A DNA stretch of 20,000 bases from an uncultured virus (IMG/VR IMGVR_UViG_3300030118_005288) (lineage: Duplodnaviria; Heunggongvirae; Uroviricota; Caudoviricetes). The translations under genes and the position numbers were made by a program. Under the pieces are notes generated by a model, which saw only the letters and a list, made by a program, of their open reading frames with translations, had not been told where the DNA came from and did no database searches. Below, one piece after another: positions 3,001-20,000 of this stretch (the first letter of the stretch is position 1; the number at the start of each line of letters is the position of its first letter). The stretch covers positions 50,446 to 70,445 of IMG/VR virus record IMGVR_UViG_3300030118_005288; one strand, 5' to 3'.

Positions 3001-6000
3001 GCATGGTAGGTTTGTTCAGCTAGCAGATACTTTAGGTAATGTTTTAGACGCTAACAACCCTGCACATATTTTACCTACTACAGGTGCTTATTTAATATTC
3101 TACAGAGCAGACGGAAGCACTACAGAAGCACATGTTGGTGTTGGTACATACAATAATAACGGTACTTGGTTTGAGTTAGTTGGTAACTCTTTTAATGATG
3201 ACGTTGGTGTTCATAGTAAAATGATAGAGGTGCCTTGGTTTAATTGTTACTCATTTGGTAATGGTGTTGAGTCTGATAGAATACGTGATGACTTTAACCA
3301 AGTTACAATAGACAATGGACCTAAAGCATCTACAACACTAGAAGAGCCTTATTTAGAAGATAGAAGAAAAAGTGGTTTTATATGGTCTGGTATATATAAC
3401 TCTAAAAGTGGTGTTAACAATTTAAACCAGTTTATACAAGCAGAAGCCATAACAAAAGACGCAAACCCTGTTTATGGTAGTATACAAAAAATGCATGTTA
3501 GAGATAATGACTTAGTTGCTTTTTGTGAAGATAGAGTGTTAAAAGTTTTAGCTAATAAAGATGCTTTATTTAATGCTGATGGTAATACAAATTTAGTTTC
3601 AACAAATAGAGTTCTTGGAAATATAAGACCTTTTGTTGGTGACTTTGGTATATCTCAAAATCCAGAATCTTTTGCAAGTGATTCTTATAGATCTTATTTT
3701 TCAGACACAAGTAGAGGCGCTATCGTTAGGCTATCTCAAGACGGATTAACAGCAATATCTAACTTAGGTATGAAAGACTGGTTTGCTGATAATCTACCTT
3801 CTTACAACAGAATTATTGGTAGTTTTGATGATAATAAAAACGAATATAACATAACATTAACTAAGGTAAATAAATCTGGTTATATTACTCCAAGTTATGG
3901 TTATATGCCTAAGACGTTATCTTTTAATGAACCTGCAAATGGTTGGGTTAGTTTTAAATCTTTTATAAAAGAAAGTGGTTTAAGTTTAAATAACTCTTAC
4001 TATACTTATTTTGAAGGTAATTTATATCAACATCATGACAATGAAATTAGAAATAATTTTTACAATGTTCAGTATGAGTCTAGTGTTGATGTTTTATTTA
4101 ACCAAGCACCTGGCGTAATAAAGAGTTTTAAAACTTTAAATTATGAAGGTACACAATCAAGAGTAACACCTGATTTAAATAACAACCCTGATTACTATGA
4201 TAATTATTTAAAGCAAGGTTGGTATGTAAACGAAATGATATCAGATGTTCAAGAGTTAGGTGTGATGGAGTTTTGGGACAAAGAAGACAAGTGGTTTAGT
4301 CAAATAAAAGGTGTTGCTACAGAGTGGTTAAATGATGGTACAGCTGGTAACATAGATCCTAGAGAGTTTTCTTTTCAAGGTATAGGTAATGCTTTTGACG
4401 TTGAGTGTGCTGACTGTCCAGATGTAGTTAGTTATGACTGTATAAATCAGCCAGCTGGATCTGTATCAGATTGTGATAATAGAACTTTACTTCCACTTCC
4501 TCCAGGGAACTACAATCCAGGTAACTATACTGTACACCCAGGTCATTTTAGAGATGAAGACTATTGGTTTTTACCAGGTAATGTTAACAAGAAAAGAAGT
4601 GATTATAAATTTATAGCTGGTCTACCAGGTACAAATAATGCGACTTACAACTCTCTTACACCAGGTTCTAATCCTGATTGGGTAGATCCAAACGATCAAT
4701 CACAAGGTTGGTACCAAAAATATGATGACATCCGTTTATACTCTTATGATTCTACACCTGTTTTATTATTTCAGTGTGATACTGTAGCAGAAATGATAAA
4801 CTGGGTTGCTACTAATTACGGATCGTTTTTCTCTAGTCCAAACGCAACTAACTTTCCAGCTCCATCTCCTGGAATGGCATATCAAAACTTTTGGGGTACT
4901 TGGTATGTAGCTTGGCACAATACGTCTTTTGTTCCAGCTGGCTCTAATGCAAACAGAAGAAACAGTCTTATATACACCTCTCCTTGTCAAAGAGTGTTTT
5001 CGCCTGGAGGTGCAAGGTGTACAGAAATACAAGGCCCTGGTGGTGCTTACGCTACAATGCAACAATGTATTGAGGGTGGTTGTGGACAGCCAGAAGAATC
5101 TTATAATTGTGATCCTCAAGCTGGTTGCGTTGATCCTGGAGATGGTACTGGTCAATTTTCTACTTATTGTGAGTGTGTTGAATCAAGGTGTTGTCCAGAA
5201 TCACAGGCATACTTTTTTGAATGTCAAAACATTAACCCGCCTTCAAACACGGCTATAGTTTTTGGTTGTATGGACGATGGTATTACAACTGATCCGTGGA
5301 TTACCCAAGATAGACCAGCTGGTTGGGTTGGTCCTGCTTCAAACTATTACGCTGGAGCTCAAGCTGATGATTGCAGTTGTATATACCAAACAGTTTCTAC
5401 TTGGGACTGTATAAACAGTAGTTGCGTAGAGGTGTTTAATGGTACTGGTCAATATCCATCACTTGCTGTGTGTCAACAAAATTGCGCACCACCTTGTGCG
5501 GGTCCTTTTGTTCCAACGCCACCTGCATTAACACATATAATAAGTAATAGGCCTGGTGGATGTAATTTAGGAGATTATTTTAATACTGGTGCGGCTGAAC
5601 TTGGTATAACAAACAATAGTATAAATCCTACTAATTGGTTTGTACAAGTGTTTGATAGTAATAATAACTTAATACACACGTCAGCTAATGTTTCTGGTGT
5701 TACTAGTATTATTGTTAACAATTTAGCACCTGGTATTTATACTTATAAGATTATTGATATTGATACTAATTGTGATTACGATTATACGTTTGAAATATTA
5801 TGCGAAGACCCACCGCCTCCACCACCTGTAACTTATGATTGTGTACTGGTAAATGGTATACATACTTGTGTAGATCCAGGTACTGGTAACGGGCAATATA
5901 CAGGGTCAAGCGCACTTACTGATTGTCAAACGGATCCAAACTCACCTTGTAATCCTAATTACCAAACAGGTGGTTGTACAGATCCTTGTGCTTGTAATTG

Positions 6001-7693
6001 GGATCCAAATGCTAATTATGATGATGGTAGTTGTATTTATGATTGTGATACCGGCGGTCTAACACTTTTTGATGCTAGTGTTGGTTACCAAAACCAATTA
6101 AACGCTGGTGTGTACACGGGCTCAGAAATAACTATAATTACAAATGCCTTGAACGGTCTTGTAAGTGCGTCTAATAGTACTGGTGGACCTACGACTTGTT
6201 ATGATTGTGGTGGTCCTGGTGTAAATTTACCTAACGAGCCATATTTTGTAAATAACGAGTCAATGATGGAGTCTTTTGTTCGTACTTATGGAATAGACAC
6301 GGATACAAGAGATTATAAGTTTTATAGAAGCCAAACTTATTTAAATCCTTCAATTAGAACCTATATGAATTTAAGAATTTCCCATATAGATCTTAATGGT
6401 TGGTACCAGCAACCTCAAAACTTCTTTACTTGGAGAGATTACATTGACACTGCTATTGCAACAGGAGTAATAACAAACGTGACAGATCTTATTGATGTTG
6501 GTTGTACTACTGGAACTTGTCAAACCGCACCTCATCAGTTTGACTCATCAACTGGTTATAGAATTGATTTAGATGCTGTAAGATATGTTATACATACTAG
6601 TATGGAAGCTGCTGGTGTTGAAACTTGTAATGGTATTATTAGTACTTATAATCAAAGTGGTCATGGTCAATATGACGATAAAAACTGCGATAGAACTAAT
6701 GTTACACTGTGTGATCCTTGTGTTGTTCCAGCTACAAATCCTTGTGGCCCACCGCCACCACAGACTACGTATCCTTGCATACCAGGTGACCCTAATTCTT
6801 GTATGCCGGGTTATACACCTTTAGGCCCTAACGTTTACACAAATCTTCAAGACTGTATAACAGCTTGCCATAGGATTGGTGTGGGTGAAGAACCTTTAAG
6901 TTATGATTGTATTAATGGAACATGTGTTGATCCTGGAACTGGTAATGGTCAATATGCTACATTAGCCGCTTGTCAAGCTGTTTGTAATATTAGTCCAGTT
7001 GGACAAAACTACGCATGTGAAGGTCCTGCTGGTTCTCAAAATTGTATTCCAACCTCTAGCCCTGTTGGTACTTACGGAAGTACAGTTGTATATGGTGACC
7101 AGGCAACATGTCTAGCTAATTGTGGTACGGTTAGTTCTACTGATATAGCGTGGGGAGGTTGTTGTCACCCATCTTCAATGGAGTACTCTCAACTTGGTCC
7201 TAATGGTCTTCCTTGTCACGCAGACAGCCTATGTCTTTGTTACTACGATCCGTTTCATTGTACTCTTCCAAATTGTTTTGTTGGTGACACTAAAGTGTTA
7301 TTAGCAGATGGTTCAAGTAAAAACATTGAAAATGTTGTGATTGGAGATATAGTAAGTTCTTACGATCAAGAAAACAAAGAGTTATCCGATGCTGTTGTAG
7401 TAGCTACACGATCGCAAGTTTCAAAAAACATGGTTGAATTTACTTTTAGCAACGGGGTTACAACAAAAAATACTTCGGACCACCCTTACTATGTAGAGCA
7501 AAAAGGTTGGGTATCATACGCAGATGATTTAAAAGTTGGCGATGTTTGCTATACTAATGAAAATAATAATATAAATAAAGTAACACTAACTAATATCAAA
7601 GAGGTTGATGGAGATAGTAAGACATACATATTTACACTCGATAGACACAAAACCTTCTTTGCAAACAGTGTGTTAGTTCACAATAAAGGATAA
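2..7693 (+). CDS. Tail stabilization/nozzle (muzzle)-like virion protein with Cys-rich repeat extension and C-terminal Hint domain (5'-truncated)
   Basis: Frame is open from the window edge, so the listed start is not the true start. Blocks DNVPRKALAQEIVGNRLVYGNY, RTYQVGVVYIDKYGRETPV, NCYSFGNGVESDRIRDDFN, GIYNSKSGVNNLNQF, YGSIQKM and FGISQNPESFA...YFSDTSRGAIVRLSQDGLTAIS match my recollection of crAss-like/flavophage 'stabilization' proteins. The core appears to end near EFSFQGIG (~4390). Confidence 0.75.
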   Translation: MLRPWDNVPRKALAQEIVGNRLVYGNYLQNYNLSNNATGDSNIKVDLKVGIRSRSLGSISPEEVEAGPNRRSIKYSPSKSLKTLRTYQVGVVYIDKYGRETPVFSEDKRGRTATGAATSQASVYNKKENANKKNSLTVELKNDPPDWATHFKLFVKETSNEYYNLAMDRWYDAEDGNIWLSFPSAERNKVDEETFLILKKAHDANTFISAPARYKIIAISNEAPRFIKLSNISQGGIIDDGATLGLSAAGFPLEGGFFIYVEKSNFENVGWKESLVNQDISQVFMRVKSASGISEYYRLKQITFDASTGTYYKLESDRVFGPDMAHTSPDGTFLNRITNCELQLIKRIPEDKAEFEGRFFVKVLKDNILIESLNITPNSGLDYIAVASMQVQYINPLAAQATGGWDGFGTNKYKISMDKRNDDRWTRPGSSAPAGHGQDFWKYASDDTTTNNSNSLAISSGWFIDAVEGFRPWKGNYWGKNVGERSTGAIDRPSAWAVNFCWGFFSSYHNDFDDGEFDRRLHALGTNTYGTTGNNYLGSSGSKKMKSPNNVLATTPSADGGPIAPGVGIDPNSGIINLSYSGLNEDDGGLTATSGNWADVLTTHYFVDAAKHAADELFIGKLLTPGTIWRWKEDPDQVLYKTVAMTGLSTTSTPYTSAQWTNEGLDFDGNPGIVLFNYVSFADYLINNHTHRVEYCWGSGDKEDDKPDWVTRNIGNHTASGTCCGGCIPCGGGLAWTLVNTSCSITAGTGCGCNHTGTSGSNAWGLIPNYPEHYKFPNLVDDWAKSKNKRRRFRFKAETLSDPTIPLGGTGHNYLPTNNPTFAPHFDHTATAITIDPSTNAAFVDPAPGIRPDGMHTGYTEPTGNWTWNPGTGSTTETLIPQYKRWSSDNIAITPAPGSVTWEIVEPFTPGEGKFSSTNPAIWETEPKEDVGLDIYYEVGHKYPIYLNDRTIEQFVGAVHEDISKNSYVQCWDPAPPIGNSAGTISLNAGGNSDMRVYAAHGRFVQLADTLGNVLDANNPAHILPTTGAYLIFYRADGSTTEAHVGVGTYNNNGTWFELVGNSFNDDVGVHSKMIEVPWFNCYSFGNGVESDRIRDDFNQVTIDNGPKASTTLEEPYLEDRRKSGFIWSGIYNSKSGVNNLNQFIQAEAITKDANPVYGSIQKMHVRDNDLVAFCEDRVLKVLANKDALFNADGNTNLVSTNRVLGNIRPFVGDFGISQNPESFASDSYRSYFSDTSRGAIVRLSQDGLTAISNLGMKDWFADNLPSYNRIIGSFDDNKNEYNITLTKVNKSGYITPSYGYMPKTLSFNEPANGWVSFKSFIKESGLSLNNSYYTYFEGNLYQHHDNEIRNNFYNVQYESSVDVLFNQAPGVIKSFKTLNYEGTQSRVTPDLNNNPDYYDNYLKQGWYVNEMISDVQELGVMEFWDKEDKWFSQIKGVATEWLNDGTAGNIDPREFSFQGIGNAFDVECADCPDVVSYDCINQPAGSVSDCDNRTLLPLPPGNYNPGNYTVHPGHFRDEDYWFLPGNVNKKRSDYKFIAGLPGTNNATYNSLTPGSNPDWVDPNDQSQGWYQKYDDIRLYSYDSTPVLLFQCDTVAEMINWVATNYGSFFSSPNATNFPAPSPGMAYQNFWGTWYVAWHNTSFVPAGSNANRRNSLIYTSPCQRVFSPGGARCTEIQGPGGAYATMQQCIEGGCGQPEESYNCDPQAGCVDPGDGTGQFSTYCECVESRCCPESQAYFFECQNINPPSNTAIVFGCMDDGITTDPWITQDRPAGWVGPASNYYAGAQADDCSCIYQTVSTWDCINSSCVEVFNGTGQYPSLAVCQQNCAPPCAGPFVPTPPALTHIISNRPGGCNLGDYFNTGAAELGITNNSINPTNWFVQVFDSNNNLIHTSANVSGVTSIIVNNLAPGIYTYKIIDIDTNCDYDYTFEILCEDPPPPPPVTYDCVLVNGIHTCVDPGTGNGQYTGSSALTDCQTDPNSPCNPNYQTGGCTDPCACNWDPNANYDDGSCIYDCDTGGLTLFDASVGYQNQLNAGVYTGSEITIITNALNGLVSASNSTGGPTTCYDCGGPGVNLPNEPYFVNNESMMESFVRTYGIDTDTRDYKFYRSQTYLNPSIRTYMNLRISHIDLNGWYQQPQNFFTWRDYIDTAIATGVITNVTDLIDVGCTTGTCQTAPHQFDSSTGYRIDLDAVRYVIHTSMEAAGVETCNGIISTYNQSGHGQYDDKNCDRTNVTLCDPCVVPATNPCGPPPPQTTYPCIPGDPNSCMPGYTPLGPNVYTNLQDCITACHRIGVGEEPLSYDCINGTCVDPGTGNGQYATLAACQAVCNISPVGQNYACEGPAGSQNCIPTSSPVGTYGSTVVYGDQATCLANCGTVSSTDIAWGGCCHPSSMEYSQLGPNGLPCHADSLCLCYYDPFHCTLPNCFVGDTKVLLADGSSKNIENVVIGDIVSSYDQENKELSDAVVVATRSQVSKNMVEFTFSNGVTTKNTSDHPYYVEQKGWVSYADDLKVGDVCYTNENNNINKVTLTNIKEVDGDSKTYIFTLDRHKTFFANSVLVHNKG
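4430..7123 (+). repeat. Dispersed Cys-rich protein repeats, consensus [ST][YW]xC-x(4-9)-C-x-DPGxGxGQY-x(5-8)-C-xxx-C (about 7 copies)
   Basis: Copies at ~4430/5018-5083 (split), 5099-5176, 5399-5485, 5831-5930, 6767-6868, 6899-6985 and 7007-7123. CVDPGTGNGQY is identical at 5867-5899 and 6923-6955. Confidence 0.85.
5264..6040 (+). repeat. Two GC[TM]D...A.N[YW]...A..DD.SCIY repeats
   Basis: GCMDDG...ASNYYAGAQADDCSCIY (5264-5386) and GCTDPCACNWDPNANYDDGSCIY (5972-6040). Confidence 0.8.
7274..7684 (+). other. Hint domain (bacterial intein-like / PT-HINT type), 137 aa, no endonuclease
   Basis: Block A CFVGDTKVLLADGSSKNIENVVIGDIV (Cys1 at 7274), block B TSDH (7472-7483), ADDLKVGD, and block F/G TYIFTLDRHKTFFANSVLVHN (His-Asn at 7679-7684), then K-G-stop. 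Confidence 0.93.
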
Positions 7694-7698
7694 TAGTT

Positions 7699-10356
7699 AT
7701 GATATATTTTTTTGGAAAATTACACCCTTATTTTTTAAGCCCTAAGCATTATAGCGGCCCAGCGCCTGCAAACGATGCTGGCGAAGGTGAAAACGAACAA
7801 CCTGCTATTGAACCTGCACTACCAAGTGAAGATCCTGCTGAAGACCCAGGTCCAGCTGAACCAGTTGAAGAGCCTGTTGTTGATGATGATGATGATGATG
7901 ATGGTGAAACGCCTAATGTTGATGATAACGACACGCCAAACCCTTATACTCCTCCTAAAATAAAAAAACCAAAGAAAAAGAAAAAAAAGAAACAACCTCC
8001 AAGACGTCCAAAACCTAAAAATTGTCCAGAGTGTATATGGGACGGTAAACAATGGGTAAGGCCTAAAACTGTAAAGCAAGACATCATAGAAACTAGTGGT
8101 GGTGAAAGAGTAGTATCTCCAATACAAAGTAAAGAAAAATTATACAAAACAATATCTTGTCCTTGTGGTTCTTATGCTATGTATGACTTTAATGGTGATA
8201 TAGCTTGTGAAAGAGATGCGTTTGGACTAAAACAGTATATAGCACCTACTCACATAGCTAACCATACGATAGGTGGACTTTCACCTACAATTGGTGATAA
8301 ATGGGTTTGCACAGGTGATTTTCACTGTCATCAAGATGATTTTAAGTTTGATACTTTTCACGTTGTTTTTGTAGAAGAAAATATTTCTGATGTTACAAGT
8401 TCTTTAGTTGATTCTTTAGTTTCTTTTTCTAATTGTTATATACCAAAAACATCTTTAAAAAATCTTCAAAATAGATTAAGTAGTAACACGCAGTATATAG
8501 ATGATTTTTTATTTAGTGAAAAAAATCCATTAGCATCTAAAGATGACGAACAACGAGGGTTTGACGATTTACCAGAAGGAATAGATTTTCTTAGAGACTT
8601 GCTTAAGTTTGATAAAAAAGTAAACGACGCACCAGTTTTTCCTACTTTTGCAAGAGCTTTACTTTGGGATAATATATATGGTCAAGGTTCTAACGTTTAC
8701 ACAGAATATATTAAAGACGGTATTGTAAATTATCTTCCTGGTTATCAAGACGTTAGCAATAAATATATATATAAAGTTTTTGTAAATAACAAAGATGTTT
8801 TAAAACTAAACGAATCAACAGCGTTCAACTATGTTTCTTACGAATCTCAAAAAGGTAGATTAATTTTAGATGCAATTGGTGGAGAGATAGTTATAAAACT
8901 TAACTCTATGGGTAAGGTTATAGTAGACATATCTATTGAAGATAGTTCTGGTTGTAATGTTTTAGACAAAAAAGCTAAGAATATAAGTTTTAACGGTGAA
9001 TACATATATAGATATAATATAGGTTCTTTACCCAAAAACAAAGCTAAAGAAATTTATAGTATAAAAATAACACCTAGTGCTGACACTTCGTTTTTTGCTG
9101 GTACAGAGTATTACAAGGGCAGCGTTTTAAACTACAAGGTTTATCAATATAAAGACCCAGTAGTTACTTTTGGAATACCAAGTGGCTCAATAACAAACGC
9201 TACTATAACCTCAACTAGTACTACTGTAACGGGTAAAACTAATAGATACTTTGAAGATCTACCTAATTATGCTCCGGTAGTACATGAAACAACAATAACT
9301 AGAAGTTCTGGTAGTGATAAATATTATAAAAAACCAAACATTATTTTTGAAAACATTATATCCAATACAGCTGTTATTAAAAAGCAAATTGTAGGTAGAA
9401 AAGTTAGCAACGAACTTGGTGAATGTTTAAGTGAGTTTATTGCTATTACAGCTCCATCTACAGACGGTTCAACAACATTTACAAACAGTGATATGGAGCC
9501 AGGTATGAGAGTTGAAGGTAAGCATACAGTAACTAAAACAATAACAAAAATTATTGATATTGAAGAGCATTTAAAAGAACCTTGCGATCATTGTGATAGA
9601 GATTTAGATATACTAACAAATAAAATTGAATTAGAAGATACTTATGATTTATATGTAGGCATGCTTGTTGAAGGTGTCGATACAAAAGGAGTAGAGTTTA
9701 ATACAGAGATATTGAGTATAGATTCTAATAAATGTATTGAGCTAACAACTCAACATCTTTTTGATTATTATTCTGATTTAACGTTTACTTATGAAGATGG
9801 TGGTGATATAATTGAAGTAAAAAATGATAATACTATAGTGTTAAACTCTTGTATAAAACTACCTAAAACAACAGTTCTTGACGTTTACAAGGCGTATAAA
9901 CCTAAAATTAACGCTTCAATGCATGTTGATAAAAGTGGTGATACTACCGTTAAAATAACAACGACTATTAATGATTTACACTTTAACAGTGATGATGTTA
10001 CTTTTTCTTTTGATGTCGGTGATATAATAACCACCAAACCAAACGCGCAAGATCAATATGTAACCGCTACTAAAGACGACACGACCGGTGCCAAAGGATT
10101 AACTTGTCTTATAGACTTTGTAAGAAACGATACTGATTATAATAAAGATAGCAAAGTTTTAACTATAACAAAAGAACCTAAAAGAGGTTCAATTGAAGGA
10201 ACAGGACCGGTTGACGGTGAAGGTACATTTACCAACACAAGAATTAAACTTTACACGCCAAACAAAGGTTTTGTTGGAACTGATACAATAAAATTTACAC
10301 TAGGAGATGGCGCAAACACTAGTGATGAAAAAACAATATATATAACAGTAAAATAA
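7699..10356 (+). CDS. Putative virion/tail accessory protein with acidic-then-basic low-complexity N-terminus and C-terminal Ig-like (Big_9/cadherin-like) domain
   Basis: 885-aa ORF starting 5 nt after the previous stop. The C-terminus (10036-10353) reads PNAQDQYV...IDFVRNDTD...TITKEPKRGSI...YTPNKGFVGTDTIKFTLGDG...TIYITV, the typical Big_9 pattern. Two GMxVEG motifs lie at ~9487-9519 and ~9646-9675. Confidence 0.7.
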   Translation: MIYFFGKLHPYFLSPKHYSGPAPANDAGEGENEQPAIEPALPSEDPAEDPGPAEPVEEPVVDDDDDDDGETPNVDDNDTPNPYTPPKIKKPKKKKKKKQPPRRPKPKNCPECIWDGKQWVRPKTVKQDIIETSGGERVVSPIQSKEKLYKTISCPCGSYAMYDFNGDIACERDAFGLKQYIAPTHIANHTIGGLSPTIGDKWVCTGDFHCHQDDFKFDTFHVVFVEENISDVTSSLVDSLVSFSNCYIPKTSLKNLQNRLSSNTQYIDDFLFSEKNPLASKDDEQRGFDDLPEGIDFLRDLLKFDKKVNDAPVFPTFARALLWDNIYGQGSNVYTEYIKDGIVNYLPGYQDVSNKYIYKVFVNNKDVLKLNESTAFNYVSYESQKGRLILDAIGGEIVIKLNSMGKVIVDISIEDSSGCNVLDKKAKNISFNGEYIYRYNIGSLPKNKAKEIYSIKITPSADTSFFAGTEYYKGSVLNYKVYQYKDPVVTFGIPSGSITNATITSTSTTVTGKTNRYFEDLPNYAPVVHETTITRSSGSDKYYKKPNIIFENIISNTAVIKKQIVGRKVSNELGECLSEFIAITAPSTDGSTTFTNSDMEPGMRVEGKHTVTKTITKIIDIEEHLKEPCDHCDRDLDILTNKIELEDTYDLYVGMLVEGVDTKGVEFNTEILSIDSNKCIELTTQHLFDYYSDLTFTYEDGGDIIEVKNDNTIVLNSCIKLPKTTVLDVYKAYKPKINASMHVDKSGDTTVKITTTINDLHFNSDDVTFSFDVGDIITTKPNAQDQYVTATKDDTTGAKGLTCLIDFVRNDTDYNKDSKVLTITKEPKRGSIEGTGPVDGEGTFTNTRIKLYTPNKGFVGTDTIKFTLGDGANTSDEKTIYITVK
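7882..7902 (+). repeat. (GAT)7 in-frame trinucleotide repeat encoding poly-Asp
   Basis: Seven consecutive GAT codons seen directly in the sequence. Confidence 0.9.
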
Positions 10357-11469: not shown

Positions 11470-12471
11470 ATGGCAAACGGAAACGATAAAAATAAAGAAG
11501 CTGGGTTAATCATGAAACAAATGTTTTCTGAGGTGATAGCAAAGTCACTTAAAAACCTAGACGGTTATACAGATATACATTTTAACGACCCTAGTTATAT
11601 ACCAGAATCTTTAAATCCTGTTATCAAAAACTTTGTTTTAACTAAAAGAAAAGATTATGATTTTTTAAGAAATGAGTTAGAAAAATATGACAAAGCTAGC
11701 GATCAATACATGTCAATAAACAACGAAATAGAACACGTGCAGCGATCATTAATGAATTTAAGAAGTGATGTAGATTTATATAAAAAAGCCAAAATGGAAT
11801 TTAAAAAAATTGTTCCTGGTATGAATAAAGGTACTCAAGACGCTAATCATTTTTTAAACTCAGCTATATTTGGTGAGTTATCAAAAGCTGAAATAGATGT
11901 AAATGGTAATTTATTATTTGCTGTTGGCACACCTAATTTTCAAGATCCAAATGGTGAGCCAGAAATTAAAAAACACAAAATGAAAGACATGTCTAATCCA
12001 ATGATGGGTGCAGCGCCTATTATTACAGAACCTTATGGTACTAAAAATATGGTGTGGAAGTTAGCAGAAGACACGCATAAGAAAAAAGAGCTAGGCGCAG
12101 GTTTTGACAAGGAATGGACTAGAAAAGTTGTTGCTAACAATATAAATGAGTTTGGACCTAATAACACTATAGGTACGGCATTTACAGATTTAGCTGGTGA
12201 TGGTAGAACAAAATCTTTTGCAGATCAATACGAAGAAGGTTTAAAACCAAAGTTTTATACACACCCTATAACAGGTGAAAAACTACCAACTGATTCAACT
12301 TGGATGAAAGACCCTGCTAACACAGAAGTTTTAGGTATGTTATTAACTGATTACATAGTTGATGTTATGGCAGACATATATGGTGTTATAGACCCTGAAA
12401 CAGGCAAGATAGATAGAACTCCAGGAGATAAAGCTAGAGAACTAATTGCAAAATACTCTAAAAGAAATTAA
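11470..12471 (+). CDS. Hypothetical protein (333 aa), probably an internal virion protein
   Basis: Full ORF with an AT-rich leader, located between the Q/A-rich gene and the giant gene. No motif recognised. Confidence 0.7.
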   Translation: MANGNDKNKEAGLIMKQMFSEVIAKSLKNLDGYTDIHFNDPSYIPESLNPVIKNFVLTKRKDYDFLRNELEKYDKASDQYMSINNEIEHVQRSLMNLRSDVDLYKKAKMEFKKIVPGMNKGTQDANHFLNSAIFGELSKAEIDVNGNLLFAVGTPNFQDPNGEPEIKKHKMKDMSNPMMGAAPIITEPYGTKNMVWKLAEDTHKKKELGAGFDKEWTRKVVANNINEFGPNNTIGTAFTDLAGDGRTKSFADQYEEGLKPKFYTHPITGEKLPTDSTWMKDPANTEVLGMLLTDYIVDVMADIYGVIDPETGKIDRTPGDKARELIAKYSKRN

Positions 12472-12476
12472 ATAAT

Positions 12477-12709
12477 ATGACAAAAGACGAAGTAATAGCT
12501 AACGCAAAAGCTCAAGGTGCGTCAGAAGAAGAATTACAAATATTAAGAAACACTCCAGACAGCGAGTACGGTAACGTTCCTTCTGTGGGAAAGACGAGCG
12601 ACATCACGTCAACAGGCGCGAATGTGATGTCGAGCAGTACAGCGTCAGAGAGTACGGGTTTAAATTTGGAACCTGGTTCTTCGGATTCTATAAAAGACAC
12701 GGTAGATAA
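12477..12709 (+). CDS. Predicted 77-aa transframe product of the giant gene (join of 12477-12593 and -1 frame 12593-12709)
   Basis: After ...PSVGK the -1 frame reads DERHHVNRRECDVEQYSVREYGFKFGTWFFGFYKRHGR then TAA (12707-12709). This frame is closed upstream by TAA at 12572-12574 and has no ATG/GTG/TTG of its own. Confidence 0.6.
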
Positions 12710-15700
12710 ATCACCACCACCAACATCTGAAGGGGAATTTAATAAAATTAACTATGGAGGTGATATTTATGGTTCAAGTCCTTATCAAGTTATAGATGAA
12801 AATGGTAATATAAAAAACGTATCGGCAGAAGAGTATTTAAAACTATATACAGACGAACAAAGACAATTAGATAATTTTTTAGATGCTAGAGATAGAGTTA
12901 AAAACCAATATTATGTAGATGCAAGTTATTTTGAAGGTAAGGTAGATGAAACAAAATTAAGAGAGCAATTAAATGTAAAACTAAAACCTTTAAATGTTAA
13001 AATTAAAGAAGTAGCCCCTGGTTTTGACGCCTTAGAGTTTACTTATAAAGACGGAACGGTAGAAGAAATTTCTTTTGATGATTGGGGTATTATTAATTAC
13101 GGAGCAGGTAAAGGTGGAAATGTAAATAGAGGTCAAGGCGCATTGACTAATCAAGAAAGAGCTGATTTTATAAATGATATTATTGACTCTCAAATAGATT
13201 ACTTATCAAATCCTGATAGCCCGGGTTATAGTGAAAACTTTGATTGGGGTATTTATTCTGGTGCTATGAACATGATGGGTGTTGGTGCTGGTAACGCAAA
13301 ACATAGAACTCTGATAAATGAAAACGCAATGATTCAGCTTCAATATGATTATGAAGATATGATGACTGAAGCGGTTGTTAACGGTAATTGGAAAGCAATG
13401 CTCGAGTCGGGTGATTTAACTTCTGATGAATTGATGAGAGTAAAAAATGCAAAGTACATAGATTTAATGGGTATGGTAATGGAGAGCGATAGATATAAAA
13501 CCGCTATGGCTCAAATAGAAGTTACTTTAAACGAGCTTAAAGGAAGCTTATTACAAGAAGTATTTAGCGAGTATAATCCAGAGCCTATATACGATCAAAA
13601 CGGTGTGTTAACTGGTTTTAAAGACGATGAAAACTGGGTAGCAGGTGCTGCCGCTATATTTGAAAAAAGATTTAAAGATTTAAGAGAAGACGTAATAAAC
13701 GGTAACTCTGAATTAAGAAAAATTATTGGTAGTATTGATTATGCTGTTAACAGTGTTTTTGACCCTGTAATACAAGACGTTTCTGCTTACGAAGGTCGTA
13801 TCGATAGATATGGAGAGTTTGTAGGTAGTAGCGATGTACTAAGCAACATTTGGAAGTTTATAGATTTAAAAGCGCCTATGCAGCTAAATCAGTTCAATGC
13901 TTTAAACAACAGCAACCAGAAGTCTATTTTGCTAAAGCAAAAGAACAGCTTTGCAGATTGGCAGAGCGGAAAAGGTGATAACGTTTTTAGAAACTGGATA
14001 GGTGCAGAATATAACATTGCAACACGGTTAGACCCAACTATACACTTAATAGAAGAACAAACAGATGCATTAGACGAATATGACAAGTTTCAATGGGATT
14101 ATACCACGTCTGGCATGCCGTTAAATAGAAGGTATAATTTTGATAGAGAGCAAATAGAAAAACAAGGTTATATAGATATACCTGTTTGGTTTGCGGAAAT
14201 GCCAACTGGAGATTATTTAGATAAATATAAAATACTAGGTAAGGCAGACCCTAGAAACGAAAACGCCATGTTTGGCGAAGAAGGTACAGGGTTTATGATG
14301 AACGTTAGGTTTGATAACTTAGAAGACGCATACAAAGAAATAGACAACCAGTACAAGTTGGTTGAAATAGCTTTAGACATGGAGATAATAGAAGACTTGA
14401 TGAAAGCTAAAGATTTTCAAAACACGTTAGGTGAGCTAACTTATTCAAACTCAGCGTTATATGATGAAAACGGTAACTGGAATGTAACAGCAGACAATTG
14501 GCAGGCTGCTTTAGGTGACACTGGTATGACTATGCTTGCTAGTATATTTACTGGTGGTATGTATACATTTTTAGCTGAATCTGGTGGTTTTTACATGGAA
14601 GCTTTAGAACAAGCGGGTATGGAAGAGTTTGGTGTAGACAGATGGAACAACATGTCATTGGAAGAAAAGAAAAGAGAACTGAACAATCTTATTGACACTA
14701 GACCAGAAATAATGAATAACGCATTTACAGTTGGTGGTGTTAACATGATGTTAGATAATGTTTCTAATTTATTTTTTATTGGTAAAGTTGGTAAACCAGT
14801 TATACAAAATCTACCTAAAGCTTGGGGTCTTTTAGTTAGAGGTAACGCAAAAGCAGCTGTTCAAAACTTAGGACTTAAAAGTGGTATAAAAAACGTTTCA
14901 ACCGCTACTTTAGTAGAAAGTTTTATAGAAGCAATGCAAGAAGAAAACACACAGTATCATTTAGGTAATACTATTGAAACTTATCAACATAGTTTTAACG
15001 GTACTATAAACTCTGGTGTTACAGCTTTGTTAACTACGCCTGTGTTTTTAGGTACTGGTAGCACGTTAAGTTCGTTTACAGGCGCTGTATACAATAAGGT
15101 AACAGCAATGAATGCTGAACCTGGTAAAATTATAGAGTTTTGTGACAACCAAAGAAAAGCTTTGTTAGACGCTAGAGCTAACGACAAAATAACACAAGAC
15201 GCTTTTGCAGAAAGAATGCAGCTTGTAGATGCTGTTCAAGAAACATTTGCTGGTCTTGGTAAAGAAAATGGTGGTTATACCGCTGATAGAATATGGAGTG
15301 ATTCACAAATAATTAAAGAGGTTTTTGAAACTCAAGCTTCTATAGAACAAAATAAAATACAGTTACAAAATCTAAACCAACAAAAACAAAAAGCTAAAAA
15401 AAGATTTGGACAAGATTATGCCTCTGATTTTGACAAGGTTAAAAATCAAGAACAGCTAGACGCTGCTATAAAAAGAATTACTTTTTTAGAGTACGAAAGG
15501 ACTAAATTAAATCATCTTAACGATTATAAAACAAAAACACTTACTAAGGCCGCTGAGATAAACAGTGACGCTAGCAATGGTTATACGGCTGTTGTTAAAA
15601 AAAATACACAAGACGCTGTTGCGTATTTAAAAAGTATTGGCTTAACAGATGAACAAATACAAACTGTTGGCGCTGCGTTTTTAAACGGAGAAGCAAACGC

Positions 15701-18700
15701 AATTATATTAAAGCCAGAGGAAGTACAAGCTTTGTTAGCAGAAAACGGAATAACTGGACCAGCTCAAGGCGTTGCCTTAATGAACGAGGCTACAATAGAG
15801 TCAAACATTAACCGTGGTAATGTTTTTAGTAGTAACACTATGCAACATGAGTTTGACCACGTAATATTGTCTACAAAAACAGATACTGAAATAAAAGATT
15901 TGTTAACAACGTTTGAAGAAACACTTAATAACTCTAGCGATCCACAAATGCAAGAGATTAAAAAAGTATATGACATAAGAGTAGAGCAGTATAGAAAGAA
16001 GTTTGGAAATAATTATTTAAGCACTAGAGCTGGTATGGAAGAGCTTATAACATCTATTGGTGATGCTATGAGCGCTGTACAAAACGGAGGTATTGTTAGT
16101 GAAACAACAACTGTTGATGGTAAAGAAATAACAAAACATAGTTTTTTACCTGGTGTTTTAACATCTGAAGGTAGACAGTCATTACAAATTATTGCTGACA
16201 AGTTACAAAGTATTTTATATGGTGAAACAAATACAGAAGTTAAAGTTGATCCTGTAAATATTATAAACTTCTTTTCTAATAATCCTTTTGCGTCTACTGT
16301 AGACTTTCAGCTACAAGATCAAGTTGTTATACTTGACGATGCTGGTAAGCCTATAGTTTCTAAAACCGCTAATTATAGTTTAGTAGGTGAAGGTGGTATG
16401 GACTTGCAGTTAGTTAGAGATGCGGCAAACATATACTACAAGCCTAACAGAGGTCAACAAGAAATAGTTGAAGAAAACAATAGGTTAGAACAAAAAATTA
16501 GAGAAGCAGAAGCTTTTACAAGTGAAGATAAAGACTTACAAGAAAGAGTTAGGGCTGGCGCAAGAAAGTGGAGAGAACAGTTAATGTTTAATAACTGGGG
16601 TGCTTTTGAAGAAGTACTTAAGTCATACGACAGAAGTAATGCCATGCACTCTACTTTAAACGAAGAAATGTTTAACGCTGAAAACTTAGAGTCTCTTGTA
16701 AAAGCTGTTATGGTTACATGGAAAGGTGAAATGCTAGATCCAAACACTGGTACGCTAAAGAAAGTTCCATTTGCTGCCTACTACTTTGGTAGCACAGATG
16801 GTAGGCCTAGTATAGCCCAAAGAAGACAAGCCGCTATATTTGACAAGCTTGATAAGGTGTTTAAACAAAGCTTAGACGAGATGGATATAGATGTTGATGA
16901 TAATACTAACACTATAAACGTACAAGACCAAGTTCAAGACAATGAGCAAAGATCTAAGCTAGTTCACACTATACCTGGTTTTGAGTGGAACGATGTTACA
17001 AAGAAAGGTAGTCAGGCGTATGAAAACTGGATTACTAAAGTTCAAGAGATCATGGTTACACAATATGATAATGTGTATGATAAAAACTTTAAGTCTATAA
17101 TACGTAAAGAAGGTAGAAAGTTTTTTAATCAACTTAAAAAAGATTTTGAAGGTGGTGTTATAAAAAATTATTTACCAACACAAAGTTATATAGATTTTAT
17201 AACAGAAAACGCAGAGCTTATATACGACCAACTACCTCAGAAAGTAATGAACGAAAACTTTACTGAGTTTACTGATATTATTTCAGAACGTATGTCTGCT
17301 GAAGAAGCAAAAATGCGTAAAGATTTAAAAACCGGTGATATATATTCTGGTACAAGCTTAAGAAAAAAGAAAGAGTTTACAGACGAGGTAAGAGCAGCAT
17401 TTTTAGAAAAACTATTAAAAACAAATCAAATAGCAGATCTTCAAGCTCAAGGTTTGAGTAACAAGGATATACACGATATAGTTAGAATGGATATGACAAC
17501 AAGAAGCACGTTGCAACATCTATCTGATATTTTGTTTAAAGATGCTGTTATGCAGGCTACAAATAATCCTGATTTTAAATCTGCTAACGGTATTGATCAG
17601 CAACAAATAATGCAAGCTGCTATGATGATTGATAGAGGTATGGATGTTAAGTTCTCTATAGTTGGTGATATGATACCTGGTGGTAAAGAGCAAACTCTTA
17701 GCGGTAGTTATGAAAGTACTTACTTGTTACAACAAATGAACTTAATACAAAGGTCTGTTTTACCTATGTATAAAAACGAAGAGGATGCTGATTTTATTAT
17801 AGACTTTATACAAAACAATGAGGCTTTTGAAAATGTACCTCAAGATATAAAAAACTTTGTAAGTAACTTGTATAGTTCTAAGTTAGTTATGGACGCAGAA
17901 ACAAGAGACTTTGTGCAATTTATAAAAACAAATGTGCCAGGTATAAGCAAAGATGTTTTATCTAACGTTGTAAACGTAAGTATAAGAGATAGAAAAGATA
18001 TAAAAGATAAAATGGTTCTTAACGCAAAAGAACTAATGACATCTTTACCTAGTGAGCTAGGTCCGTTTGTTTACGAAATGCTAGGCTTTAAAGGTGGTAG
18101 TAGATTTTTAGATATAACAGCAAAAGATAATAAAGGTGAATACTTACAGGATTTTGAAGATGTAAAGAGTTTATCTAAGTCAGCTGAGGAACTTGGTGTT
18201 ATTTTAGATTTTGACCCTAAAGATATATCTATATACAACAAGTCTACTCCTTTAAAAAGTAACGGTATATTTAAAGAGATTATAAATTTAAACCAACGTA
18301 TTGCTAAAGGTGAAATAACAAAAAGACAAGCACAAAGAATAATAGAGGAAACAAATTTAACAGATAGAATAGAAAAAGCTAACAAGGCTAACATGGGCGC
18401 TTTAAAACTTGTGTACAAAGCTATGGCTGTTAAATTAAAAGATGGTAAATTAGACGAAGCCGCTTTACTACAGTTGTTTAAGCTACAATCAAATTTAGTT
18501 GGTGGTTTTAGAGGGTTGTCAAGGTTAGACGGTTACAACTTGCTAGATGGTAAGTTTAAGTTTAATCCTAAAGACAAAGGCGTTACATGGACAGAAAACA
18601 GTAAAGGCGAAAAAGTAATTTTGTTTAAAGGTGAGCATGCTGCGTCTATGTCAAAGGTTGATGCTAATGTAATACAGTTAATGTATGATTATAAAGACGG

Positions 18701-20000
18701 TAAAGTAAACGACGCTTTATTTAATGCTATGCTAGATGTTGAGCTAGCTGGTTATGGTCAAGTGTTAGGACACAATGGTCATTTTGATATTATAGACAAA
18801 GCTGGTAAAACAAATATATCAGACACATATAGATTTAATCTGTTAGATGCTAAGACGCTAATGCAATACACTAGCATATACGGTGAGAATATGAAAGATA
18901 TGCAGATGCGTATACTTTTAGATCTTGATCGTAAGCAACAGATTGTAAACTCTATAAAGAAAGAAACTGCTATAGCAAATATAAGAACACAAAGAATAAA
19001 TGGTATTGAGCGTGGTGCTAGTGTTTTTGATTTTGATGGTACATTAGAAGAAGGTGGTGCTAATATTATAGTTGCAACTCACCCAACGTTAGGGAGAAAA
19101 GAAATTAAATCAGACGAGTTTCACAGTGTTGTTGTTGATCTTACTAATAAGGGTTATGAATTTAACTTTGATGATTTTGTTAATGTAAAAGAAAGTGAAA
19201 AAGGCCCTTTGTTTGAAAAGTTTAGAAATCAAATAGAAAAATATGGCGTTGACAACGTGTTAATATTAACAGCAAGACAACCAGAAGCTGCCATAGCAAT
19301 ACAAGCGTGGTTGAAGTCTAACGGTATAAACTTACCTTTAGAAAACATAACTGGTCTAGGTGTTACGGGTCCTGATGGTAAACCTATAACTGTAAAAGGA
19401 ACAGACAAAGCAAGGTGGATAGAAGAAAACTTAATATGGGACGGATTTAGTGATATATACTTTGTTGATGATGGTCAACAAATAGTAAACGACGTTCAAG
19501 CTATGTTTGATACTTATCCTGAAGGCTTGTTAGTAAATGGTGGAAAGTCTGTTTTAGTAGATCCAGACTACGATCCAGATCTAGGTCAAGAAATTATAAA
19601 CGAGATAAATGAAAGTTATCCTAATGATTTAAATGGTAACTTGATAGAGATAGAGCCTGGAAAATACTCTTTAACGGGACCTAATATAGATTTAAACAAA
19701 ACGTTTAACGATATAATAGAGTCTAAAACAGGTATTGAATCACAAAAAGTATTTTCTAGAGCAGAAGGTACTATCAGAGGTAGAAGCCACTTTAGTATTT
19801 TAGATAAAATATATCCAGCATCTGCTTATGATTTAGAAATGTTTACATATAGATATTTGTCTGAAGGTGCGTTAGGTGAAAATCAACAAGCGTTTTTTCA
19901 AGAAAAATTATTTAAACCTTTTGCTATAGCTAATAATGCTATAAACAAAAAGAAACAAGAAGTAAAAAACAATTATAGAAACTTAATAAAAAAATTACCC
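12477..20000 (+). CDS. Giant polyvalent/internal virion (ejection) protein, >2508 aa, 3'-truncated; zincin, sigma2-like and HAD domains
   Basis: ATG at 12477 (MTKDEVIANAKAQGASEEELQ...), 5 nt after the previous stop. My manual translation found no in-frame stop to the window end (...NYRNLIKKLP), which would explain its absence from the ORF track. Contains HEFDH, DFDGT/LTAR/FVDD, and Gly/Ala-rich hydrophobic segments at ~14500-15100. Confidence 0.92.
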   Translation, partial: MTKDEVIANAKAQGASEEELQILRNTPDSEYGNVPSVGKTSDITSTGANVMSSSTASESTGLNLEPGSSDSIKDTVDKSPPPTSEGEFNKINYGGDIYGSSPYQVIDENGNIKNVSAEEYLKLYTDEQRQLDNFLDARDRVKNQYYVDASYFEGKVDETKLREQLNVKLKPLNVKIKEVAPGFDALEFTYKDGTVEEISFDDWGIINYGAGKGGNVNRGQGALTNQERADFINDIIDSQIDYLSNPDSPGYSENFDWGIYSGAMNMMGVGAGNAKHRTLINENAMIQLQYDYEDMMTEAVVNGNWKAMLESGDLTSDELMRVKNAKYIDLMGMVMESDRYKTAMAQIEVTLNELKGSLLQEVFSEYNPEPIYDQNGVLTGFKDDENWVAGAAAIFEKRFKDLREDVINGNSELRKIIGSIDYAVNSVFDPVIQDVSAYEGRIDRYGEFVGSSDVLSNIWKFIDLKAPMQLNQFNALNNSNQKSILLKQKNSFADWQSGKGDNVFRNWIGAEYNIATRLDPTIHLIEEQTDALDEYDKFQWDYTTSGMPLNRRYNFDREQIEKQGYIDIPVWFAEMPTGDYLDKYKILGKADPRNENAMFGEEGTGFMMNVRFDNLEDAYKEIDNQYKLVEIALDMEIIEDLMKAKDFQNTLGELTYSNSALYDENGNWNVTADNWQAALGDTGMTMLASIFTGGMYTFLAESGGFYMEALEQAGMEEFGVDRWNNMSLEEKKRELNNLIDTRPEIMNNAFTVGGVNMMLDNVSNLFFIGKVGKPVIQNLPKAWGLLVRGNAKAAVQNLGLKSGIKNVSTATLVESFIEAMQEENTQYHLGNTIETYQHSFNGTINSGVTALLTTPVFLGTGSTLSSFTGAVYNKVTAMNAEPGKIIEFCDNQRKALLDARANDKITQDAFAERMQLVDAVQETFAGLGKENGGYTADRIWSDSQIIKEVFETQASIEQNKIQLQNLNQQKQKAKKRFGQDYASDFDKVKNQEQLDAAIKRITFLEYERTKLNHLNDYKTKTLTKAAEINSDASNGYTAVVKKNTQDAVAYLKSIGLTDEQIQTVGAAFLNGEANAIILKPEEVQALLAENGITGPAQGVALMNEATIESNINRGNVFSSNTMQHEFDHVILSTKTDTEIKDLLTTFEETLNNSSDPQMQEIKKVYDIRVEQYRKKFGNNYLSTRAGMEELITSIGDAMSAVQNGGIVSETTTVDGKEITKHSFLPGVLTSEGRQSLQIIADKLQSILYGETNTEVKVDPVNIINFFSNNPFASTVDFQLQDQVVILDDAGKPIVSKTANYSLVGEGGMDLQLVRDAANIYYKPNRGQQEIVEENNRLEQKIREAEAFTSEDKDLQERVRAGARKWREQLMFNNWGAFEEVLKSYDRSNAMHSTLNEEMFNAENLESLVKAVMVTWKGEMLDPNTGTLKKVPFAAYYFGSTDGRPSIAQRRQAAIFDKLDKVFKQSLDEMDIDVDDNTNTINVQDQVQDNEQRSKLVHTIPGFEWNDVTKKGSQAYENWITKVQEIMVTQYDNVYDKNFKSIIRKEGRKFFNQLKKDFEGGVIKNYLPTQSYIDFITENAELIYDQLPQKVMNENFTEFTDIISERMSAEEAKMRKDLKTGDIYSGTSLRKKKEFTDEVRAAFLEKLLKTNQIADLQAQGLSNKDIHDIVRMDMTTRSTLQHLSDILFKDAVMQATNNPDFKSANGIDQQQIMQAAMMIDRGMDVKFSIVGDMIPGGKEQTLSGSYESTYLLQQMNLIQRSVLPMYKNEEDADFIIDFIQNNEAFENVPQDIKNFVSNLYSSKLVMDAETRDFVQFIKTNVPGISKDVLSNVVNVSIRDRKDIKDKMVLNAKELMTSLPSELGPFVYEMLGFKGGSRFLDITAKDNKGEYLQDFEDVKSLSKSAEELGVILDFDPKDISIYNKSTPLKSNGIFKEIINLNQRIAKGEITKRQAQRIIEETNLTDRIEKANKANMGALKLVYKAMAVKLKDGKLDEAALLQLFKLQSNLVGGFRGLSRLDGYNLLDGKFKFNPKDKGVTWTENSKGEKVILFKGEHAASMSKVDANVIQLMYDYKDGKVNDALFNAMLDVELAGYGQVLGHNGHFDIIDKAGKTNISDTYRFNLLDAKTLMQYTSIYGENMKDMQMRILLDLDRKQQIVNSIKKETAIANIRTQRINGIERGASVFDFDGTLEEGGANIIVATHPTLGRKEIKSDEFHSVVVDLTNKGYEFNFDDFVNVKESEKGPLFEKFRNQIEKYGVDNVLILTARQPEAAIAIQAWLKSNGINLPLENITGLGVTGPDGKPITVKGTDKARWIEENLIWDGFSDIYFVDDGQQIVNDVQAMFDTYPEGLLVNGGKSVLVDPDYDPDLGQEIINEINESYPNDLNGNLIEIEPGKYSLTGPNIDLNKTFNDIIESKTGIESQKVFSRAEGTIRGRSHFSILDKIYPASAYDLEMFTYRYLSEGALGENQQAFFQEKLFKPFAIANNAINKKKQEVKNNYRNLIKKLP
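12587..12646 (+). promoter_or_regulatory. Predicted -1 programmed ribosomal frameshift element: G_GGA_AAG slippery site plus downstream stem-loop/H-type pseudoknot
   Basis: GTG GGA AAG in the giant-ORF frame (heptamer 12587-12593), then a 5-nt spacer. Stem 12599-12609 (CGACATCACGT) pairs with 12622-12632 (ATGTGATGTCG): 11 bp with one G-U. Loop GGCGC (12615-12619) can pair with GCGTC (12642-12646). Confidence 0.75.
15690..16060 (+). other. Zincin-like metallopeptidase domain within the giant protein
   Basis: NTMQHEFDHVIL (HExxH at 15846-15860), preceded by short strands (ANAIIL, GVALMN) and followed by a candidate third-ligand helix GMEELITSIGD (EE at 16038-16043). Boundaries are approximate. 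Confidence 0.7.
16572..16878 (+). other. Divergent sigma70 region-2-like segment within the giant protein
   Basis: REQLMFNNWGAFEEVLKSY...AENLESLVKAV...DPNTG...VPFAAY...RRQAAIFD...SLDE parallels the sigma70 pattern REKLIEANLRLVVSIAKKY...QEGNIGLMKAV..FDPERG.KFSTY..WIRQAI...SLD. Aligned by eye only. Confidence 0.45.
19014..19510 (+). other. HAD-superfamily phosphatase domain within the giant protein
   Basis: Motif I VFDFDGTL (DxDxT at 19029-19043), motif II VLILTAR (Thr at 19269), candidate motif III Lys (DKARW, 19407) and motif IV IYFVDD (19467-19472), in the correct order. Confidence 0.88.

Follow-up and report, generated by a model that had tools for sequence, protein, structure and literature searches.

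A putative programmed -1 frameshift cassette near the start of giant virion-type genes in uncultured marine phages

Background

According to portions of two published accounts (PMC10885494, PMC5009743), the frameshifts known in phages mostly concern tail assembly chaperones, together with a few capsid genes. In this work, we analyzed a stretch of 20,000 nucleotides, hereafter the window, which forms the last 20 kb of the 70,445-bp IMG/VR virus record IMGVR_UViG_3300030118_005288, from an uncultured marine phage with a genome G+C content of 33.7%. Near the beginning of a giant gene of this window lies a compact cassette made of a slippery heptamer, a predicted RNA pseudoknot and an open -1 frame.

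Judging from sequence comparisons, we consider that the cassette most probably (probability roughly 0.86) directs a programmed -1 ribosomal frameshift at codons 37-39 of a gene of 3236 amino acids (aa), and thereby yields a second protein of 77 aa. Comparison among genomes shows that the presumed slip signal and the predicted RNA structure are conserved in about twenty lineages, and that the structure covaries in the seven sequences aligned for this purpose. The mechanism is classical, while the gene context and the product family have no match in Pfam, PHROGs or the literature searched.

Results

Layout of the cassette

The giant open reading frame (ORF) and the elements found over its first codons are the following, all on the + strand:

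12477..20000, +: giant ORF, 0 frame, starting at ATG 12477 and running past the end of the window and of the contig; 3236 aa in total
12477..12593, +: codons 1-39, common to both products; a two-helix DUF2795-like N-domain, then a short linker ending in G38-K39
12587..12593, +: slippery heptamer G_GGA_AAG (GTG GGA AAG), in phase; the identical heptamer is in phase in 10 of 21 distinct cassettes
12594..12598, +: spacer ACGAG, 5 nt
12599-12609 with 12622-12632, +: predicted pseudoknot stem 1, 11 bp (one G.U); its loop, 12610-12621, carries the 5' strand of stem 2
12615..12646, +: predicted pseudoknot stem 2, loop bases GGCGC (12615-12619) with GCGUC (12642-12646), one G.U; loop 3 is 9 nt (12633-12641)
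12594..12709, +: -1 frame after the shift, 38 codons (DERHH...KRHGR) and stop TAA (12707-12709)
12647..12706, +: -1 frame tail REYGFKFGTWFFGFYKRHGR, with the conserved motif; predicted beta-hairpin

The codons TCT GTG GGA AAG ACG set the heptamer in the X_XXY_YYZ phase of the giant ORF. Behind it, the -1 frame reads GKDERHHVNRRECDVEQYSVREYGFKFGTWFFGFYKRHGR up to its TAA, and a -1 stop is present 5 codons upstream of the heptamer. The predicted RNA fold has the H-type geometry, since the 5' strand of stem 2 resides within the loop of stem 1 and its partner lies beyond stem 1 (12599-12632).

A preliminary description, made from the sequence of the window alone, had pointed to a GC-rich patch in an AT-rich gene, to an in-phase heptamer followed by a 5-nt spacer, an 11-bp stem and a loop pairing, and to a 77-aa product that shares 39 residues with a 0-frame protein of more than 2500 aa and whose -1 part lacks a start codon of its own. 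These features were all recovered: G+C reaches 54% at 12550-12649, compared to 27-41% in the flanking 100-nt profile windows; the coordinates of heptamer, spacer, stem and loop pairing were reproduced from the sequence and by RNA folding; translation gives 39 + 38 = 77 aa with no -1 start; and the giant ORF amounts to 3236 aa once the contig ends are joined.

Rarity of the cassette within the genome

To place the heptamer among comparable sites, the forward ORFs of at least 100 codons in the 70,445-bp genome were surveyed. Among the 160 in-phase XXXYYYZ sites, that at 12587-12593 is the sole GGGAAAG, and the fold predicted over its next 50 nt (-15.6 kcal/mol) is the strongest of all. Its -1 extension, 40 codons, ranks fourth of 160, the top two arising from spurious overlapping ORF calls. 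Open -1-frame segments as long as that of the cassette (at least 44 codons) number 8 of 2417, for a median of 4 codons. Moreover, the heptamer is built from rare codons, as GTG, GGA and AAG account for 8%, 15% and 21% of their codon families in the large genes of this phage.

Related cassettes and their slip sites

In total, 23 loci carrying 21 distinct cassette sequences were assembled, all retrieved via the tail peptide or the N-terminal domain and never via the slip site. The closest, L003, is 90% identical to the window, and L004/L005 and L006 share 45-54% protein identity with it; proteins P0002-P0004 were matched as well. The in-phase G_GGA_AAG, the 5-nt spacer, the 11-bp stem and the open -1 frame are all kept at L003, L004/L005 and L006. 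Across the three diverged DNA lineages, the residue preceding GGA AAG varies (GTG Val, GCG Ala, ATG Met), and in the diverged lineages the -1 frame closes shortly after ...WFFG[FI]....

A DNA pattern that describes the coding sequence of the tail, and contains neither the heptamer nor the stems, found a fourth lineage, G001. This 2475-aa gene has a different N-terminal domain, a G_GGA_AAG at codons 51-53, an unlike stem 1 (GUUCUGCG/CGACAGAAC), the same stem 2 (GAUGC:GCAUC) and a tail ...QYGFKFGIWFFGITRA. An alignment of the four -1 peptides gave 17 IMG/VR loci, with 14 new contigs, and at all 17 the match falls within a -1 ORF of 38-60 codons near the start of an ORF that stays open for 411-956 codons, up to the end of the locus. 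With an alignment of the second type of N-domain (MFEYEGQQYSLEE...), five loci were obtained, and five of five have the cassette; a search with a DNA pattern of the start region returned only the two contigs found earlier. All cassettes lie 35-80 codons into ORFs open for >400-2400 codons. Prokaryote genomes scanned with the tail alignment gave one match, in a metagenome-assembled genome of 64% GC; it was judged to be due to chance, as the motif there opens a 77-codon ORF and no giant gene is present.

The slip sites are canonical X_XXY_YYZ heptamers in 13 of the 21 cassettes (10 G_GGA_AAG, 1 G_GGA_AAA, 1 A_AAA_AAA and 1 A_AAU_UUU), and near-canonical in the other eight (2 G_GAA_AAG, 1 G_GUA_AAG, 1 A_GUA_AAG and 4 A_GAU_UUU, the last from one close group). 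G_GGA_AAG is described as strongly shift-prone in Escherichia coli in a section of Atkins et al. (2016, PMC5009743). The same section gives Z_ZZN as the minimal -1 site, with A_AAG as a well-studied case, and lists G_GU and G_GA among the X_XX triplets of natural sites; on the strength of these preferences, as far as that section goes, the near-canonical variants are plausible but weaker slip sites. In L011 (2501-2860), the 0-frame linker is acidic.

Predicted RNA structure and its covariation

A hairpin was predicted by RNAfold behind the slip site in all 21 cassettes, with free energies of -5.6 to -17.7 kcal/mol. Its main helix begins 4-7 nt past the slip site in 19 cassettes; for the window and L003, the RNAfold model also contains an isolated outer pair at 2 nt, the 11-bp stem itself beginning at 5 nt. 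The spacer of the window is thus within the classical range of 5-9 nt stated in part of PMC5009743. When stem 1 was taken from RNAfold and its loop was searched against the downstream bases, a stem 2 of at least 4 bp was found in 17 of 21 cassettes. In L023 this two-step search found no stem 2, as RNAfold had filled the loop, and a perfect-helix search gave 6 bp. The latter search yielded, in most lineages, a spacer of 5-7 nt, a stem 1 of 6-11 bp, a stem 2 of 5-7 bp and a loop 3 of 9-13 nt, with weak stems for L020 and L026. In most lineages, the 3' strand of stem 2 directly precedes CGAGAR-UAY.

Covariation was assessed on seven sequences that align without gaps over 75 columns, for a pseudoknot of 17 pairs. 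Pairing is possible in 89.9% of the cells (92.9% for stem 2 alone), compared to 17.6-44.5% when the partners are slid by 1-3 columns. Both sides have changed in 9 of the 17 pairs (stem 1, 6 of 11; stem 2, 3 of 6), and the covariation score of 0.490 (0.277 in shuffles) was attained by none of 500 shuffles. The variants of stem 2 illustrate these compensations: GGCGC:GCGUC, GACGC:GCGUC, GGAUGC:GCAUCC, GGGUGC:GCACCC and GGGUGU:ACACCC.

An Rfam scan of 12300-12900 gave no matching family and two chance-level hits only, and inspection by eye across the cassettes revealed no consistent Shine-Dalgarno-like element upstream.

Which frame is under selection

The window, L004 and L006 were compared over 526 ungapped windows of 36 codons within their first 1240 codons. 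The -1 frame is free of stops in all three only in the five windows that cover the cassette, and there its identity (0.63-0.65) is the highest of the 526 and exceeds the 0-frame identity of the same windows. Elsewhere, windows of equal nucleotide identity contain about 20 stops and attain a -1 identity of 0.46 at best; the median is 0.31. Along the 0 frame, third-position identity is elevated over the cassette, yet also elsewhere, and is therefore not specific to it.

The core of the tail, with the consensus [RK][EQ]YG[FI]x[FIV]Gxx[FI]xG, lies downstream of the RNA structure. Over the tail, mean column entropies at -1 codon positions 1, 2 and 3 are 0.48, 0.51 and 1.01 bits (14 lineages), and the third positions of the -1 frame are the second positions of the 0 frame. 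Nei-Gojobori counts over the 13 codons of the core (17 lineages, 136 pairs) give, for the -1 frame, proportions of synonymous (pS) and nonsynonymous (pN) differences of 0.716 and 0.211, a pN/pS ratio of 0.30; for the 0 frame, pS is 0.179, pN is 0.352 and the ratio is 1.97. The 0-frame residues over the tail (ESTGLNLEPGSSD, ENMDLDSEIGSSD, ENTELDLENISLA...) drift among small polar residues. No ATG, GTG or TTG exists in the -1 ORF ahead of the tail at any of the 23 loci, and the -1 stop falls 3-7 residues past the FFG motif at 22 of them, L024 being the exception. In this locus (1780-1935), the slip site is A_AAA_AAA and a Cys-rich C-terminal extension of 18 residues (VGSCCAKSNESCCT) continues beyond the tail.

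Taken comparatively, these counts show a -1 frame that bears the signature of purifying selection. The preliminary description had proposed that homologous giant genes be collected and examined for an in-phase slippery site, a covarying stem and a G-x-W-F-F-G-like -1 motif kept despite 0-frame divergence. Such genes were indeed found, with the slippery site in phase, with covariation in stem 1 as well as in stem 2, and with a -1 motif that is conserved while the overlying 0-frame residues diverge.

The two predicted products and the tail family

Residues 2-37 taken alone match DUF2795 (PF11387) with 30.1 bits, above the cut-off of 25, whereas the whole 2507-aa protein scores 21.4 bits, under this cut-off. 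In an AlphaFold model of the 0-frame N-terminus, helices span residues 3-12 and 17-25 at a predicted local distance difference test score (pLDDT) of 86-92, and the chain is structureless thereafter. The absence of predicted structure after residue 30 or so fits the preliminary description, in which the 0 frame over the cassette was called featureless.

The tail is predicted to form a beta-hairpin, with one strand at residues 19-27 and another at 30-38 of the -1 peptide of 40 aa (mean pLDDT of these blocks 84 and 75; 64 for the whole model, built on a 15-row alignment). By eye, aromatic residues alternate with glycine or charged residues along the strands, so the hairpin may be amphipathic. A complex prediction with four copies of the tail peptide scored 0.03, for a mark of 0.42; this gives no answer and speaks neither for nor against oligomerization. 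The motif is present in one copy per genome. A cluster of cysteines (for example CxxCxCxC) follows the shift in most lineages and overlaps the bases that code for the pseudoknot.

Searches of the tail, of proteins resembling the short product and of the N-domain against Pfam, PHROGs, ESM Atlas and PDB sequences returned nothing besides DUF2795. Four called proteins join an N-domain and the tail in one frame: P0018 (71 aa), P0019 (90 aa), P0020 (92 aa, E = 4e-10) and P0021 (101 aa). P0018 is L038 minus the pseudoknot region; P0019-P0021 may be natural single-frame genes or indel artefacts.

The proteins encoded downstream are highly diverse. Indeed, BLASTP with the protein of the window finds only L004, L006 and, through a HAD-like region, G001. 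The N-domains that precede the cassette are of at least two unrelated types, the cassette being the constant part. A fixed cassette placed between varied N-domains and downstream proteins that BLASTP mostly fails to recognize (L018-L038, first 900 codons) points to modular exchange.

Discussion

Proposed mechanism

A slip site in phase, a covarying 3' structure and a -1 frame that is open and protein-like are found together in the cassette, and these are the marks of a programmed -1 frameshift. Under this reading, ribosomes would start at ATG 12477 and decode the two-helix N-domain, and GGA would occupy the P site and AAG the A site when the H-type pseudoknot is encountered 5 nt ahead. A fraction of the ribosomes, presumably at a useful rate, would slip back by one base onto GGG AAA, decode 38 codons in the -1 frame, terminate at 12707-12709 and release a 77-aa protein composed of the N-domain and the REYGFxFGxWFFG tail. 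Ribosomes that do not slip would make the giant protein, in which the overlap would serve as a tolerant, disordered Ser/Thr-rich linker. The frameshift could thus set the ratio of a small partner made in many copies to a giant protein made in few. A docking domain would be common to both proteins, and the short form might owe a binding or membrane-interface function of its own to the hairpin tail.

It is conceivable, although rather unlikely, that the docking domain, the frameshift signal and the hairpin tail constitute a portable leader module, which many related uncultured marine phages, forming a large clade, would place before giant cargo proteins that are otherwise unrelated. The frameshift would impose a many-to-one ratio. 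Through its aromatic, glycine-alternating hairpins, the short product might build a ring or barrel at the portal, the tail channel or the host envelope, and this assembly would pilot or gate the way out for the giant protein with the same N-domain.

Points against a programmed frameshift and alternative explanations

Several observations weigh against the frameshift reading. The fold of the window is not exceptional for its composition, since 37 of 200 shuffles of the same GC-rich stretch are equally stable (z = -0.99); fold energy alone is non-significant, and the significance of the cassette derives from the comparative data. The covariation test involves only seven sequences, one of which had served to derive the structure. 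Eight of the 21 cassettes have no canonical heptamer, their sites being assigned by a distance of 5-6 nt to stem 1. The two-step RNAfold and loop search found no stem 2 in L029, L035 and L036, and stem 1 is weak in L026. The cysteine cluster, reduced to one Cys after the shift in the window and absent from these same three loci (L029, L035, L036), is not universally needed. In L011, a relative whose N-domain is of the same type, the site is only G_GUA_AAG, the stem is weak and the tail has diverged (KYGIHWGRKFYGITKV); this may be a decaying or differently driven version. Finally, GenBank phages (50,697 records) gave no match, and hence no cultured relative, in blastn and tblastn searches with the region, with the -1 peptide or with the giant protein.

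If the shift is real, it could act mainly as a translational attenuator of the giant protein, the short product being a by-product or a tag for degradation or quality control. The very early position of the slip in an ORF of 3236 aa, where each slipped ribosome saves about 3200 codons, is in keeping with this, as is a tail that matches no known family or function. An attenuator needs merely a nearby stop, however, whereas the -1 stop is kept right after the motif at nearly all loci, the tail is constrained as a protein (pN/pS 0.30), and P0019-P0021 carry N-domain and tail in a single frame; we therefore regard attenuation as the main role as improbable. A further proposal is that the -1 product comes from transcriptional slippage, or from DNA length variants at the site, instead of ribosomal slippage. 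The run of seven A at the site of L024 speaks for this, as does P0018, which resembles a natural deletion variant fusing both frames. Yet 20 of 21 cassettes have no run of identical bases above 4-5 at the site, the unshifted DNA recurs in independent assemblies of many samples, and a covarying pseudoknot at a spacer of 5-7 nt is the arrangement expected of a ribosomal -1 shift, at least in the part of PMC5009743 concerned with it. Either origin appears highly improbable.

The pseudoknot is the best-conserved nucleotide feature of the cassette, and it is plausible that long genes contain pausing elements close to their 5' ends; the pseudoknot might act purely as RNA, in messenger stability or in a pause for folding or targeting of the N-domain, with the -1 frame never translated. 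We give this very little credence: the strongest protein-type constraint is in the tail, beyond the structure, where variation falls on -1 third positions and spares positions 1 and 2; in the 526-window scan, the cassette alone has an open -1 frame; and an in-phase slippery site lies at the correct distance in all lineages. We give hardly any credence at all to a separate overlapping gene as the source of the dual constraint, whether it begins at a start of its own in the -1 sense frame or lies on the opposite strand. In its favor, the ORF list includes a minus-strand ORF that covers the cassette (62 aa, 12512..12700), and the wobble positions of one antisense frame coincide with those of the -1 sense frame. 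A start codon is nevertheless absent from the -1 sense ORF at 23 of 23 loci, and the wobble-aligned antisense frame has stops in the core in 3 of 17 lineages, has no usable start in the window or L004, and scores 3.12 per residue with BLOSUM62, compared to 3.92 for the -1 sense frame. As for the minus-strand ORF of 62 codons (12512..12700, -), it is in register with the -1 frame, which would put the greatest variability at the first position of its codons; it was rejected as an antisense shadow that shows no sign of coding constraint and is open because of local composition.

The giant gene and its genome context

The contig is cut within the giant gene. At the start of the contig, the ORF resumes in frame for 728 codons (G000:C1 1-2187, locus L039), which gives 3236 aa, in agreement with the 3091-3284 aa of the homologues. 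The record is therefore a complete genome in circularly permuted form, despite being classed as linear.

In the window, genes follow each other on the + strand: ORF 2..7693 (2563 aa), ORF 7699..10356, three small ORFs, ORF 11470..12471, and then the ORF of ATG 12477. The genome also encodes a large terminase, a portal, capsid-type 'virion structural' proteins, a ribonucleotide reductase, a primase-helicase and a ligase. The product of ORF 2..7693 contains, in its middle (residues 1349-1436), the Crassvirus muzzle C-terminal domain (PF25729 crAss_MUZ_C, 37.7 bits for a cut-off of 27). The giant gene is four ORFs after this muzzle-domain gene, at the end of the crAss-type structural module, as expected of a cargo gene of the Crassvirales type. 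In PhicrAss001, cargo proteins, among them proteins of 262 and 277 kDa, are encoded behind the muzzle gene, according to part of PMC10172136. Because of this shared position, the giant protein may be a virion cargo or ejection protein. It has no Pfam or PHROG family past its first 39 residues. A motif scan found a HAD-like DFDGT at residue 2185 and no DxDGD; with this motif absent and no family match, identification as a crAss-type virion RNA polymerase is unsupported.

Two further observations concern the large proteins of this phage. A Hint/PT-HINT domain ends the product of ORF 2..7693 (residues 2421-2561 of 2563, E = 1e-9), with the next ORF 6 nt downstream, which suggests autoproteolytic or intein-like processing of the C-terminus of this tail-tip protein. 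In addition, the phage encodes a full-length GroEL-like chaperonin (G000:C1 32353-33918, that is, L040 12353-13918; phrog_5725, E = 2e-135), which may be relevant to the folding of its two proteins of more than 2500 aa.

Significance

The cassette would place an early truncating frameshift in giant virion-type genes of about twenty lineages, which come from many marine metagenomes. Gene callers miss it, as the -1 ORF lacks a start codon, and the cassette reveals a conserved family of small proteins unnamed in any database searched. For research on recoding, it offers a clean pseudoknot from a bacterial virus, with natural compensatory variants and a series of slip-site variants; for phage biology, it may provide a handle on the dosing, addressing or ejection of giant cargo proteins. 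It is also a dual-coding example of textbook quality, with an apparently selected protein in the off-frame and a main frame that is a tolerant, disordered linker. The preliminary description knew of no such arrangement in phage ejection or polyvalent genes, and our full-text searches on phage, crAss-like and polyvalent-protein frameshifts likewise returned no description of such a cassette, in a coverage that mostly excludes subscription journals.

Comparison with known systems

In E. coli, copA is reported, by Meydan and colleagues in 2017, to undergo an early -1 shift at an X_XXA_AAG-type site followed by a downstream structure, which frees a small N-terminal domain, CopA(Z). The cassette of the window shares with copA, to which it is non-homologous, an early truncating -1 shift that would release an N-terminal domain. 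It differs in that the trans-frame part of 38 residues is itself conserved and selected, in its location in a giant virion-type phage gene, and in the very different proteins that follow.

The pseudoknot recalls those of the infectious bronchitis virus (IBV) type, for which work of the Brierley laboratory is reported to describe a stem 1 of 11 bp, a stem 2 of 5-6 bp, a short first loop and a loop 3 of at least about 8-9 nt. Such pseudoknots begin 5-7 nt past the heptamer and act on eukaryotic ribosomes at U_UUA_AAC. The predicted geometry is similar, but the cassette of the window belongs to a bacterial virus and has a lysine AAG in the A site.

With lambda G/GT, as portrayed in the relevant lines of PMC5009743, the cassette has in common the same G_GGA_AAG, a gene of a phage structural module and two products that are identical at the N-terminus, the ratio of which matters for assembly in lambda. 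There, however, the shift occurs near the 3' end and extends the protein, and the gene precedes a tape measure gene in long-tailed phages, whereas here the shift would be truncating and lies in a crAss-type, podophage-like module. With truncation at codon 38-39 of 3236 and no Pfam or PHROG chaperone match, a lambda-type tail assembly chaperone is not what the giant gene encodes.

As for dnaX tau/gamma, described in a portion of PMC5009743, it resembles the cassette in being a truncating -1 shift, with a lysine A_AAG in the A site and a 3' structure, and in giving two proteins that start with the same N-terminal sequence, at a ratio that is set in dnaX. In the window, by contrast, the shift would take place at codon 38-39 of 3236, with a pseudoknot and with no consistent Shine-Dalgarno-like element seen by eye. 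The cassette is homologous to none of copA, dnaX and lambda G/GT; copA and dnaX are the closest arrangements.

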